Virus record (IMG/VR): IMGVR_UViG_2554235177_000006
Length of the DNA stretch: 9,293 nucleotides
From: a virus
Taxonomy: Duplodnaviria > Heunggongvirae > Uroviricota > Caudoviricetes
Reading direction: 5' to 3' (one strand)
Positions 2,981 to 8,453 of this stretch are shown piece after piece. The notes under the pieces are model-generated. The model ran no database searches, was not told where the DNA came from, and saw nothing but the letters and a program-made list of their open reading frames with translations. Every line of letters starts with the position of its first letter. Position 1 is the stretch's first letter. A program made the position numbers and the translations under genes.

Positions 2981-3257
2981 GTGTGGTGGTTGTTGCTTTC
3001 CCGTTGCTGAAAAAGAAAACGCCAGACTGTTAGCCGGGTATCAGTTAGCGGGAGAAATTTTTAAATACTTCACAATTCAGGCGGTTGACTGTTGTCTGGT
3101 TTGCGGGGAGTTTGTTAAAAGAAACTGGCATGGTGAATCCCCCTGTGCGGAGGGGCAATCAGCGAGTAGGTATATGGGATAATCGCGGATTCAGGTGCTG
3201 GTACTGAATTCACCGGGAGGCACCCGGCACCATGCAATGGCACATAGCGCCACTCTC

Positions 3258-3294
3258 CAGCCCCTCTCCGGAGGGGCTGTTTATATTGATTTTG
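3258..3294 (+). terminator. Intrinsic terminator (GC-rich hairpin plus T-rich tail)
   Basis: Perfect 9-bp stem CAGCCCCTC/GAGGGGCTG with TCCG loop (3258-3279), then TTTATATTGATTTTG. Confidence 0.6.
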
Positions 3295-3313: not shown

Positions 3314-3649
3314 TTATGGACTTTGTTGTTTTAGCCCATAAGGACATATTTGCAGAGTGCAACGGTTATTAAAGCATTCATTCAATACGTTATCTGTATT
3401 TGTAGGGCATTCCTGGCTGTTTTTGATTAAATTCCAGAATGTTTTATTGAATGGTACTACGTTGTAAATGGTTACAGGTAGCACTTTGTTATTGAGCATG
3501 ATACCTGTGTGAGTCAGTGTAAATATACTTTCAGGAGGTAAGAAAGCATCCGATTGATACCAGATTATTAATTTTATTTTACTCCATATGACTGAAAAAG
3601 ATATTCCGCATGATGGCTGGATAACTGTATCAATCACAATCCACTTCAT
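3314..3649 (-). CDS. Hypothetical protein (111 aa) in an AT-rich island, opposite to the late operon
   Basis: Clean 336-nt ORF in strongly AT-rich DNA, where stop codons are frequent, so unlikely by chance. AGGAA about 5 nt upstream of the ATG; candidate sigma70 promoter upstream on the minus strand (TTTACA, about 15-16 nt spacer, TATACT). No recognisable family. Confidence 0.4.
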
Positions 3650-4621: not shown

Positions 4622-4625
4622 AGTG

Positions 4626-5516
4626 ATGAATAAAAAATATGAACTGGTTGTTAAGGGGATAAATAATTACGGGGATAAGGTTACTGTTACTGTGAAGTCG
4701 GAAGGTGACGGGCAAGCGTCGCTGTTGTTGCCAGATGTGGCGATTAGTCTTGACCGTACTGAAGGTGCCACGCTGGAGTTTTACGAAGCTGAGGCGAAAA
4801 AGCAGGCGAAGCAGTTTTTCATGGATGTTGCTGCCGGGTTATGTGAATGGAACGAACCGTTGCCGGAAAAGCGCCCCGTAATTTTAGAGGCGCAGGATGT
4901 GTTGATAACCTACAAAGGAAAGCTACCGGGAAGAATTACTTGTTCTCTGAAGATGCCGCCGTCAACACTGCGGTCAGAAAAAGATGATGTTGAATCACGT
5001 ATTGAAAAACTGGAGAGCTACGTCGTTGAGCTGAATAAGAAATGGTCGATATTGGTGCCTTCTGGCGATGAAAAGCAGTTTGCTGCGTTTGACGATTATT
5101 GTCGGAAAGTGATGAGCAGAAATCTCGCAGAGTGTTTCAGTATTCATAATGATAATTTCAGTGACCCGGAATGGGAGTGTAACCGGCCATCCTTTGTTGT
5201 ATCCGGTGATGCTGGGAAAATAACCATCTCAGAAAATGGGAAAGTAACACCTCCATCGCACCAGCACAGTGAGGAGCTCATTGAATTTGCCATTGATTAC
5301 CTGAAGAACAATAAAAAGCAGGGGCTGATGAAGCGCGTTGGCCGTTGCATGGGATATCTTCAGGTAGCCGCTGAGATTGAAGCGCTGGCCAGTGGTGCTG
5401 ATAAGGATGCAATTGTGCGGGAGGCTCTTCTTCGTGATTTTAATACTCCACCCTTTAAAAAAGTGCCGGCTTACTGGCTTCATCCGGGGCTGACTTATCT
5501 TAAAGTGCGTATTTAG
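4626..5516 (+). CDS. Hypothetical protein (296 aa) inserted between holin and endolysin; function unknown
   Basis: ATG 4626 lies 4 nt after the holin stop, with GGGGAGAG upstream; long clean ORF ending TAG 5514-5516, 36 nt before the endolysin start. No transmembrane segment or catalytic motif recognised by eye; contains a charged helical stretch (RSEKDDVESRIEKLESYVVELNKKW). Confidence 0.7.
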   Translation: MNKKYELVVKGINNYGDKVTVTVKSEGDGQASLLLPDVAISLDRTEGATLEFYEAEAKKQAKQFFMDVAAGLCEWNEPLPEKRPVILEAQDVLITYKGKLPGRITCSLKMPPSTLRSEKDDVESRIEKLESYVVELNKKWSILVPSGDEKQFAAFDDYCRKVMSRNLAECFSIHNDNFSDPEWECNRPSFVVSGDAGKITISENGKVTPPSHQHSEELIEFAIDYLKNNKKQGLMKRVGRCMGYLQVAAEIEALASGADKDAIVREALLRDFNTPPFKKVPAYWLHPGLTYLKVRI

Positions 5517-6571: not shown

Positions 6572-7041
6572 ACATAAACCGAATGCTTTCCGCGTTTATC
6601 GTTATTCTGCTGGTGGCCTGTGGTGCGCTGTGGATGGCAACAGACCATTACCGTGATAACGCGATTACCTACAAAGCGCAGCGCGATAACAAAGCCAGTG
6701 AACTGAAGCTGGCGAACGCAACCATTACTGATATGCAGGTGCGCCAGCGCGATGTTGCTGCGCTCGATGCAAAATACTCGAGGGAATTAGCCGATGCGAG
6801 AGCTGAAAATGAAACTCTTCGCGCTGACGTTGCCGCTGGTCGTAAGCGCCTGCGGATCAACGCCACCTGTCCAGGCTCCGTGCGTGAAGCCCCCACCACC
6901 TCCGGCGTGGATAATGCAACCGGCCCCCAACTGGCAGACACCGTTACACGGGATTATTTCACCCTCAGAGAGCGGCTGATGACGATGCACAAGCAACTGG
7001 AAGGGGCACAGGACTATATCCGCACTCAGTGCCTGAAATAA
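6568..7041 (+). CDS. Rz: Rz i-spanin (inner-membrane spanin subunit)
   Basis: Translation closely matches lambda Rz ([14 protein letters not shown]...DMQ(V/M)[12 protein letters not shown]...[10 protein letters not shown](M/I)TM(H/Q)KQLEG). Start either GTG 6568 (coupled) or ATG 6583. Confidence 0.9.
6609..6616 (+). other. Chi octamer GCTGGTGG
   Basis: Exact match read in sequence. Confidence 0.9.
6794..6979 (+). CDS. Rz1: Rz1 o-spanin (outer-membrane lipoprotein) embedded in Rz in the +1 frame
   Basis: 61 aa with lipobox-like LVVSAC and proline-rich [14 protein letters not shown]...WQTPL(H/N)GIISPSE, closely matching lambda Rz1. GAGGGAA upstream of ATG 6794. Confidence 0.85.
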
Positions 7042-7351
7042 GTTTTGTTGATGCGCCGTATCGTCGCTATATTCCCTCATTAACAGAGACCGCAGCCCGA
7101 CAGGGAGACTCCTCTGCGCGAGTGTGCGGGGATAATTAAAAACGATGCACACCGGGTTTTTACCGCGTTAATGATTCGCGGGTTTATCCCGGTGCGATGG
7201 TGGAAGAAACAGGAAGCTGTATTACAGAAAGTGCTACTACTGTATCCCGATGCGATGTATGTAATGTGAGTCAGATAATGGCACAGGATGTGGTGATGTG
7301 GCAGTCTGGAACACAGGATATATTGTCAGAATAAGACCCGTAGGAATAAAA

Positions 7352-7678
7352 ATGAAAAGACGCCTTTTACTACTTTTTCTGTTATCTGTCCTGGCAGTGG
7401 GATGCTCGCAGCAAAAAGCTGATGAGCCCCGGCAATTAGTGACGGTGTATCCACGATATCCGGAATATGCTGCAGCAAATTATATCAAGGGGCTGGTTGA
7501 GGTTAAGTTCGATATTGGTGCTGATGGGACTGTGACACGGATCGTTTTTCTCCGCTCAGAGCCTCATAATTTGTTTCGTGATGAAGTGGTGAAGGCCATG
7601 GCGAAATGGCGATTTGAAAAGAATCGCCCCTGTCAGGGAGTGAAGAGACAATTTATCTTTACGCCGTCACGTCCTTGA
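7352..7678 (+). CDS. Putative lipoprotein with TonB C-terminal domain (108 aa)
   Basis: AGGA 6 nt upstream of ATG; N-terminus MKRRLLLLFLLSVLAVGCSQQ is a signal peptide with a Cys at the likely lipidation site. The rest (GLVEVKFDIGADGTV...LRSEPHNLFRDEVVKAMAKWRFE) matches the TonB_C pattern G.V.VKFD...DG.V...S.P...F..EV..AM..WR.E. Confidence 0.7.
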   Translation: MKRRLLLLFLLSVLAVGCSQQKADEPRQLVTVYPRYPEYAAANYIKGLVEVKFDIGADGTVTRIVFLRSEPHNLFRDEVVKAMAKWRFEKNRPCQGVKRQFIFTPSRP

Positions 7679-7769
7679 TGCTTCCAGGTAGAGAGGGGCT
7701 GGACGCAGGAGAAAAATGAAAGAGCCAGCGGTTATATTTTTGTCATGGCTGACGAGGAATGATGGAAGA

Positions 7770-7794
7770 AGGCGTTGTATGCCACACAACGCCT
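7770..7794. terminator. Putative bidirectional hairpin terminator between convergent genes
   Basis: Perfect 9-bp stem AGGCGTTGT/ACAACGCCT with 7-nt loop, between the + strand TonB-C gene (ends 7678) and the minus-strand ORF (ends 7801); pyrimidine/T-rich flanks on both sides. Confidence 0.45.
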
Positions 7795-7800
7795 CACTGT

Positions 7801-7980
7801 TCATTTCTTCTTTTTCTCTGGTGGAACCCGATGAATAAGAGTTGCACTGGTTTCCGATGAGATGGCGATATACTCGGGCAAAGTATGCTGGCAGTTTTCC
7901 AACTGGTCAAAAATACCTGCTCTCGTCTGTTGCAATGCCTGCAGCATGCGGCGGCAATGCGCCTTGCTTTTACTAACCAT
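7801..7980 (-). CDS. Hypothetical small protein (59 aa); may extend upstream to ATG 8154 (117 aa)
   Basis: Very strong RBS (AGAGGAAGGAAAG) immediately upstream of ATG 7980. The upstream in-frame extension (IRIYLVLHDEFTQRLIEEGK) looks like a ribbon-helix-helix beta strand plus helix, but its ATG at 8154 has no RBS and overlaps the next ORF. Confidence 0.35.
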   Translation of the reverse strand: MVSKSKAHCRRMLQALQQTRAGIFDQLENCQHTLPEYIAISSETSATLIHRVPPEKKKK

Positions 7981-8041
7981 CTTTCCTTCCTCTATCAGTC
8001 GCTGCGTGAACTCATCATGTAATACCAGGTAAATGCGGATG

Positions 8042-8293
8042 TTATCGGTTTTGGCTACGCAGCATAGTACAAAACGGACAGGTGCATCCCGGGACGGGGG
8101 AGGCGTCACATGTCCCTGTGATGGTTGTTCCGGGTAATGCACTGTGTGGGGCATAAAAATGTCCGATAATTTTACTTTCTACCGCAGTTAGTTGATTCGT
8201 TGGTCCTGGTAGCACATTGGGCGAGGATTTAAATGCCAGGCAACTGAAGGATGATGTTGCAAGGGAGATAGCGAGAATATTTCTGATTTTCAT
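8042..8293 (-). CDS. Hypothetical small secreted protein (83 aa) with N-terminal signal peptide
   Basis: ATG 8293 with AGAGG about 9 nt upstream; N-terminus MKIRNILAISLATSSFSCLA is signal-peptide-like; candidate sigma70 promoter (TTACAG, 18-nt spacer, TATTAT) between it and cos. Its 3' end overlaps the long form of the neighbouring ORF in another frame. Confidence 0.35.
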   Translation of the reverse strand: MKIRNILAISLATSSFSCLAFKSSPNVLPGPTNQLTAVESKIIGHFYAPHSALPGTTITGTCDASPVPGCTCPFCTMLRSQNR

Positions 8294-8441
8294 TTGATGA
8301 TGCCTCTGTGTGAAATGACGGTAAACGACGCACTTGTGCCGGCACATAATAGCAAGCACCATAATAGATCAGATTCGATTCTTGCTGTAAGTGATAATTA
8401 TTCTCGTTTTCGGGTCCTTTCCGTCGATCCAACAGGTTACG

Positions 8442-8453
8442 GGGCGGCGACCT
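8442..8453 (+). other. cosN: lambda-type 12-nt cohesive-end sequence GGGCGGCGACCT
   Basis: Exact GGGCGGCGACCT followed by CGCGGGTTTTCGCTATTTATGAAAATTTTCCGG, as at the lambda left end; preceded by lambda-right-end-like CGGGTCCTTTCCG..GATCC.ACAGGTTACG (the cosQ side). Confidence 0.8.

Follow-up and report, generated by a model that had tools for sequence, protein, structure and literature searches.

A putatively lipid-anchored TonB C-terminal domain encoded beside the lysis genes of a lambdoid prophage: a candidate decoy for TonB-dependent import

Why should a lambdoid prophage encode, between its lysis genes and its cohesive end, the docking domain of TonB as a small lipoprotein? The question arises at positions 7352-7678 of the window, by which we mean the whole stretch of DNA that was analysed (9,293 nucleotides). 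A preliminary description of this DNA had noted there a lipoprotein with a TonB C-terminal domain, and had suggested that it acts as a decoy for the TonB boxes of outer-membrane transporters. The existence of the gene is not new, since it is already catalogued, and its database annotation is already "TonB family protein". In the literature we found no functional study of the phage 21/E. coli lipoprotein, nor any mention of the gene in the paper on the phage 21 genome. As far as we found, the new leads are a separate clade, Fur boxes upstream of relatives, and a parallel in lipoproteins built on the TolA domain.

By gene content, the window is a Qin-like lambdoid prophage, with the gene order DUF968, RusA, Q, IraM-like, holin, YdfR/DUF1327, lysozyme, Rz/Rz1, lipoprotein, cos, and small terminase subunit. 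The lipoprotein gene lies about 760 nt 5' of cosN, at the right end of the virion chromosome, and positions 7052-8441 match the right end of the phage 21 genome at 98.7% identity. Moreover, phage 21 encodes the identical protein as CPT_21_73 ("TonB C-terminal domain protein"), and RefSeq lists it as WP_000830178.1. The gene had been placed in a cargo slot downstream of Rz comparable to that of bor in lambda, and both parts of this claim stand: Rz ends at 7041, with the gene 310 nt beyond Rz/Rz1, and in phage 21 it is bor that stands between Rz and the TonB_C gene. The sequence GGGCGGCGACCT corresponds to a lambda-type cohesive end. The features that frame the gene are:

6583..7041 (+): Rz i-spanin (Pfam Phage_lysis, E=2e-47; RefSeq annotation)
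6794-6979 (+): Rz1 o-spanin, embedded in Rz (Pfam, E=4e-20)
7042..7351 (+): spacer from Rz to the lipoprotein gene, 310 nt, without a convincing sigma-70 promoter or terminator
8442..8453 (+): cosN cohesive end GGGCGGCGACCT, where the phage 21 right-end identity stops exactly

Elsewhere in the prophage, positions 3099-3288 (+), 3' of Q, match the sRNA STnc100 (Rfam, 132 bits against a gathering score of 47), and a low-GC (34.5%) cargo gene at 3314-3649 (-), between Q and the holin, is annotated in RefSeq as anti-adapter protein IraM. A 297-aa ORF of the DUF1327/YdfR family (PHROG 1085) occupies 4623-5516 (+), between holin and endolysin; its counterpart in strain 7/2 is called an incomplete pseudogene by RefSeq. 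Approximately 30 nt left of cosN, at 8387-8411, the Fur-box-like TGATAATTATTCTC (15/19) is identical in phage 21 and is located upstream of an unannotated minus-strand ORF (8042-8362), in which an internal Met-to-Ala stretch resembles a signal peptide. The Fur-box likeness of this site may simply reflect the AT-rich cos region. Phage 21 further carries the sitABCD iron/manganese ABC transporter as cargo (L098 9968-13417; phage 21 record 21967-25416), which was rejected as a regular companion of the lipoprotein gene, being missing from the strain 7/2 prophage with an identical TonB_C gene.

Alignment with the O157 allele divides the spacer into two parts, of which 7042 to about 7160 belongs to a 90%-identical Rz segment, while about 7160-7350 is diverged, with indels. 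The apparent conservation of 7042-7160 is thus that of the end of the Rz segment. A structured RNA in the 310-nt spacer was considered and rejected, with no Rfam match there and a fold z-score of just -1.2. At the boundary between conserved Rz and the diverged cassette, there is a long imperfect hairpin at 7150-7194 (CACCGGG...CCGCG-loop-CGCGG...CCCGGTG); no U-run follows it on the plus strand, and the whole spacer folds no better than shuffled sequence. The spacer also holds an ORF of 45 aa at 7197-7334 (+), corresponding to the hypothetical protein CPT_21_72 of phage 21. It is probably not a conserved gene, and it was discarded as a partner gene because indels break the ORF in the O157 allele.

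The 108-aa ORF that had been reported at 7352-7678 is present with its ATG, TGA and plus strand all as described. Likewise, the lipoprotein-type signal peptide was confirmed, since MKRR-LLLLFLLSVL-AVGC-S matches the lipoprotein pattern and Cys18 is constant across the aligned close relatives (n=7). The gene and its product are laid out as follows:

7342-7345 (+): ribosome-binding site AGGA, 6 nt 5' of the ATG, shared by the O157 allele and part of the phage 21 annotation
7352..7678 (+): lipoprotein TonB_C gene, ATG 7352, TGA 7676-7678, 108 aa (ORF and translation)
7352..7405 (+): lipoprotein signal peptide, residues 1-18 (pattern match; MKRR, hydrophobic core, lipobox AVGC)
7394-7405 (+): lipobox AVGC, with the lipidated Cys18 predicted at 7403-7405
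7406..7426 (+): tether SQQKADE, residues 19-25, from the lipid anchor to the folded domain (low pLDDT; variable between alleles)
7427..7666 (+): TonB C-terminal fold, residues 26-105 (AlphaFold2, Foldseek, PDB sequence matches)

Lipoproteins with a residue other than Asp at position +2, and therefore no Lol avoidance signal, are sorted to the outer membrane. The +2 residue is Ser19 in the window protein and Ser, Thr or Ala among alleles. Both the lipobox and the non-Asp +2 are kept across alleles, and Ser19 predicts outer-membrane sorting of the protein.

The TonB_C-like motif passed the Pfam HMM check that had been suggested for it: PF03544 matches residues 33-99 at E=7.3e-13, with 49.2 bits against a cut-off of 24.6, and TIGR01352 scores 47.4 bits against 27.1 (NCBIfam). 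No match to any other family was found for the protein, the Pfam scan (E<=1) giving TonB_C alone, and no PADLOC defence profile matched at E<=0.1. The protein is 41% identical to E. coli TonB 150-230 over 81 aa (BLASTP), a region that all but coincides with the TonB fragment (81 residues) in the BtuB crystal structure, and its top PDB sequence matches are all TonB domains. It is not the TonB energy transducer. The NCBIfam equivalogs (PRK10819) all failed, with 45-69 bits against cut-offs of 265-448, and matched over the last ~85 positions only. Furthermore, TonB proper can be rejected since the uncleaved N-terminal membrane helix that couples to ExbB-ExbD and the proline-rich spacer are both missing. 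Indeed, the absence of an energy-transducing N-terminus had been claimed beforehand and is borne out, with the signal peptide and seven linker residues leading directly into the domain.

An AlphaFold2 model built from 17 sequences reaches a pLDDT of 96-98 over about residues 30-100; values are below 60 at residues 1-20, where residues 4-15 form a low-confidence helix, and climb beyond residue 26. The modelled order of a short strand, helix 38-42, strands 47-55 and 61-70, helix 76-83 and strand 94-103 corresponds to the helix-strand-strand-helix-strand fold of solved TonB C-terminal domains, and includes the counterpart of TonB beta3, the strand that pairs with TonB boxes. In Foldseek searches, the best structural matches of the model were TonB domains without exception, among them TonB from the BtuB complex (2gsk_B, TM 0.92, 1.0 Å) and from the FhuA complex (2grx_C, TM 0.92, 0.9 Å); the viral structure library gave no significant match.

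In the alignment with TonB, the YP motif is kept (Y36-P37 for TonB Y163-P164), and F53, F75, W86, F88 and F103 align with TonB F180, F202, W213, Y215 and F230, which are functionally important aromatics. R158, Q160 and R166, the positions of TonB most frequently connected with binding of the TonB box, correspond to T31, Y33 and Y39 in the window protein, so its specificity may differ from that of TonB. At the Q160-equivalent position, the window allele has Tyr and the O157 allele Leu.

The gene was found in 1617/5426 complete E. coli genomes, including UTI89, ATCC 25922 and O157:H7, and is intact in 1612 of them; it is also present on 218 IMG/VR viral contigs. Strain K-12 is among those without it. 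Two old alleles are distinguished, one of at least 99% identity in 1202 genomes and the other of about 73% nucleotide identity in 392 genomes. Both share the 108-aa length, the lipobox and the domain, and between them dN/dS is 0.12 at a dS of ~1.5, denoting purifying selection. Because of these values, the ORF is a working gene, and not a chance frame or relic. The amino-acid differences between the alleles include residues 31-33 and 99-100, which sit beside the predicted TonB-box site.

An exhaustive HMMER search retrieved many relatives of 107-133 aa, with 35-49% identity and mostly with lipoboxes. A neighbour-joining tree (no bootstrap) groups these relatives with the E. coli phage alleles, in a clade apart from genuine TonB C-terminal domains; by sequence, then, the gene is not a clipped tonB but a member of an older small-lipoprotein family. 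Chromosomal relatives occur near lacZ/lacI in Klebsiella and Raoultella, next to dsbB-nhaB in Serratia, and next to ahpCF or a PTS gene elsewhere; plasmid relatives amount to 96 records, IncF plasmids included. In four further phage or prophage contexts (an O157:H7 prophage, Klebsiella phage ST13-OXA48phi12.4, a metagenomic phage, and a Salmonella plasmid-prophage) the gene is directly 3' of the spanin genes and 5' of the terminase, on the same strand. Since the chromosomal and plasmid copies have no lysis neighbours, this fixed position looks like a cargo hot-spot, and not like a functional tie to lysis.

The relatives also give an indication of how the family is expressed. A Fur box of at least 14/19 stands within 100 nt 5' of the start codon in 10 of the 12 non-E. 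coli homolog loci, against five such sites in the remaining 114 kb of the same loci, although several of the 12 loci are orthologous and the nominal P value overstates their independence. These boxes lie 10-75 nt 5' of the start codon (loci L004-L009, L011, L100, L103, L104). The perfect box TGATAATTATTATCA is found upstream of the gene in Klebsiella and Raoultella, a perfect box is retained by the metagenomic phage copy, and in Serratia a 17/19 match overlies a TTGACA-17-TATTTT promoter. In the O157 allele, the same position holds a degenerate palindrome with a 13/19 Fur match. In the window allele, a 13-nt deletion has removed the right half of this palindrome, leaving:

7323..7337 (+): TTGTCAGAATAAGAC, left half of the AT-rich palindrome (alignment with the O157 allele; Fur-box scans)

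Within 350 nt upstream of the window gene, no Fur box was found, the best match being 11/19. The family thus looks iron-starvation-inducible, and the window allele appears uncoupled from Fur. More generally, the boxes of the relatives predict an uncharacterised Fur-regulated family of outer-membrane lipoproteins. The window gene shares the strand of the late genes and falls within their transcription unit; a search around it gave neither a convincing sigma-70 promoter nor a terminator. In lambda, the lysis genes are read from pR'. With no promoter or terminator of its own and half of the Fur-like site lost, the window allele is probably read through from the late promoter together with the lysis genes, late in lytic growth; nothing in the sequence supports its expression in the lysogen.

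TonB and TolA are the two hubs exploited by colicins and many phages. In this context, mobile elements were also found to carry lipoproteins with the TolA C-terminal domain (loci L107 653-1024, L109 1512-2245 and L110 3297-3725).

On a Klebsiella IncF plasmid, a member of the window family lies 6 kb from a 123-aa TolA C-terminal-domain lipoprotein (lipobox LTAC), and the TolA lipoprotein is present on 724 plasmids. Klebsiella ColRNAI plasmids of 10 kb encode it together with tRNase bacteriocin, immunity and lysis genes; there, the TolA lipoprotein gene overlaps by 4 nt, in an operon, the gene of a Sec-exported TonB_C protein. In the lambdoid phage mEp460, a TolA C-terminal lipoprotein with the lipobox IIGC is located between Q and the lysis genes. 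The export of anchor-less TonB and TolA domains by mobile elements, including bacteriocin plasmids, points towards defence.

What, then, would such a protein do? Our tentative answer, held at somewhat short of even confidence, is that the protein, un-energised and tethered to the outer membrane, binds TonB boxes in competition with TonB and so damps or blocks TonB-dependent import. The small lipoprotein would be exported and lipidated at Cys18 and, having kept the fold and the edge strand, could bind TonB boxes, either those of outer-membrane transporters or those of incoming group B colicins. Having neither a membrane-spanning N-terminus nor a proline-rich rod, it would not couple to ExbB-ExbD, so that the boxes would be bound without delivery of energy. 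Competition with the real TonB would then damp or block TonB-dependent import, and the outcome would be the exclusion of TonB-dependent phages (T1 and phi80 types), colicins and microcins. For the window allele, transcription would start at the late promoter and take in the lysis genes; its relatives would be switched on by iron starvation through Fur; the Fur boxes of the relatives would tie expression to the very condition that induces TonB-dependent receptors.

Published work offers the mechanism some footing. Exported TonB 33-239, 103-239 and 122-239 inhibit the TonB system (bioRxiv 10.1101/2020.01.05.895219), and cross-links of TonB to the FecA TonB box arise without energised TonB (PMC11658791). 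In addition, TonB Q160L restores the activity of inactive TonB-box mutants of colicin M and FhuA, and group B colicins require their own TonB box for contact with TonB (PMC11658791). The decoy proposal is further supported by the recurrence of the gene as mobile-element cargo, in the phage-21-like prophage, in four phage contexts and on IncF plasmids. Several points weigh against it. To make a blocker under iron starvation would carry a cost, and the Fur-controlled chromosomal relatives, located among housekeeping genes, are equally compatible with a helpful part in iron uptake. Moreover, the window allele may be made late in lytic growth only, when exclusion is of limited value, and the equivalents of R158, Q160 and R166 are not conserved. 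On balance, the decoy is an unproven but plausible mechanism, for which laboratory constructs set a precedent; that the protein reaches the outer membrane, binds TonB boxes, inhibits import and brings an ecological benefit is what we infer.

The main rival is an accessory role in iron uptake, in which the protein, as a fitness gene of the lysogen, aids or tunes TonB-dependent uptake under iron starvation instead of blocking it. It could hold or protect exposed TonB boxes, or even out the rivalry of the many induced transporters for a limited supply of TonB. Genes repressed by Fur mostly serve iron acquisition, and the strong Fur boxes just 5' of chromosomal homologs (the perfect TGATAATTATTATCA; 17/19 in Serratia), the non-phage neighbourhoods of these homologs and the sitABCD genes of phage 21 would all suit such a role. 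However, no mechanism is known that would let a second, un-energised binder of TonB boxes accelerate transport, and its engineered equivalents inhibit it. The link to bacteriocin plasmids and the TolA-domain lipoproteins fit defence better, and the window allele has lost its Fur site. We consider an accessory role unlikely.

A narrower version of the competing domain would be a trap for bacteriocins, the tethered domain catching the TonB boxes of incoming group B colicins, klebicins and microcin carriers, while the transporters would for the most part keep working and supplying iron. The dependence of group B colicins on their own TonB box is compatible with this, as is the operon of a secreted TonB_C protein and a TolA lipoprotein on bacteriocin plasmids; the allele differences at residues 31-33 and 99-100 likewise adjoin the predicted TonB-box site. 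Nevertheless, sequence does not separate the TonB boxes of colicins from those of transporters, and the trap is a variant of the decoy, not an independent alternative. Taken by itself, we regard it as quite improbable.

Position invites another explanation, namely that the protein is an accessory of lysis or of the envelope, binding peptidoglycan or an outer-membrane partner and affecting spanin action or envelope integrity. In its own prophage and in the four other phage contexts the gene is always directly 3' of the spanin genes on the late strand, it matches PHROG 1267, labelled 'Rz-like spanin', at E=5e-43, and in Anabaena a connection of TonB-like domains with the structure of the septal wall is reported. 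A spanin identity was rejected, since a complete Rz/Rz1 pair is already present upstream, the lipoprotein has no C-terminal membrane helix (its C-terminus, FIFTPSRP, is not hydrophobic), and relatives exist without nearby lysis genes. These same points, the absence of lysis neighbours extending to close chromosomal and plasmid relatives, speak against a wider lysis role, and the lysis-terminase junction is a known cargo slot, holding bor in phage 21; such a role is thus very unlikely. The PHROG 1267 label looks like an annotation error derived from the position beside lysis genes.

Finally, that the gene is a decaying, functionless remnant of a captured tonB is scarcely credible: some phage records do carry the labels 'TonB fragment' or 'partial tonB-like' and a few database copies are truncated or frameshifted, but a truncated tonB pseudogene is ruled out by purifying selection (dN/dS 0.12, dS ~1.5) and by a clade separate from true TonB C-terminal domains, and length, lipobox and domain are kept in two old alleles and intact in 1612 genomes.

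Returning to the decoy, a broader proposal follows, which we put forward with considerable doubt. Mobile elements of Enterobacterales may share an undescribed general strategy of tethered or secreted decoys, made of the docking domains of TonB and TolA, that would shut both import routes to colicins, microcins and many phages. The TonB version would normally be wired to Fur, appearing when TonB-dependent receptors are induced, and would have been re-wired to the late operon in phage 21 and in the roughly 30% of complete E. coli genomes that have the gene. Should the protein be a decoy, this common gene would lower sensitivity to a whole class of phages, colicins, microcins and siderophore-linked antibiotics, all of which enter through TonB-dependent routes. 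It would then bear on phage therapy, on bacteriocin competition in the gut and on Trojan-horse drugs, and the protein would be a natural dominant-negative TonB and a ready tool to probe TonB-box engagement. With Fur boxes in the relatives and TolA lipoproteins on bacteriocin plasmids, the idea can be tested at little cost.

Among known systems, E. coli TonB itself has the same C-terminal fold, with the YP motif and five aromatics in common, whereas the window protein lacks the N-terminal membrane helix, the proline-rich spacer and the terminal strand after beta3. The engineered TonB 33-239, 103-239 and 122-239 share the domain, are exported through a fused signal peptide without the energy-coupling N-terminus, and are dominant-negative inhibitors of TonB-dependent transport. 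Those fragments are soluble, longer and over-expressed laboratory constructs; the window protein, in contrast, is natural and, by prediction, lipid-anchored, begins at the equivalent of TonB residue 150, stops just past beta3, and is 41% identical to TonB.

Lambda Bor/Iss is likewise an outer-membrane lipoprotein of prophages, encoded in the cargo region between Rz and cos. It belongs to another family, lies on the opposite strand, is expressed in the lysogen and acts in serum resistance, and phage 21 has both genes side by side. The TolA lipoproteins resemble the window protein in being phage- or plasmid-borne and in placing the C-terminal docking domain of a trans-envelope energy transducer behind a lipobox, and differ in that the domain is that of TolA (Pfam PF06519). 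They are a parallel and not a precedent, being themselves uncharacterised as far as we found.

The closest functional comparison is with Llp of T5 and Cor of phi80, N15 and HK022, small phage lipoproteins of the inner leaflet of the outer membrane. They act on a TonB-dependent receptor from the periplasmic side and block phages, colicin M and ferrichrome; the lipid anchor of Llp favours the complex with the receptor by confining both partners to the plane of the membrane. No kinship with the window protein was seen in the Pfam scan (E<=1) or in the structural matches of the model, and Llp and Cor, of unrelated fold, recognise FhuA specifically and remodel it. If our proposal is right, the window protein would instead act on every carrier of a TonB box. 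The mechanism, if real, would thus be a variation on the Llp/Cor theme, with a mimic of TonB itself and a potentially broad range.
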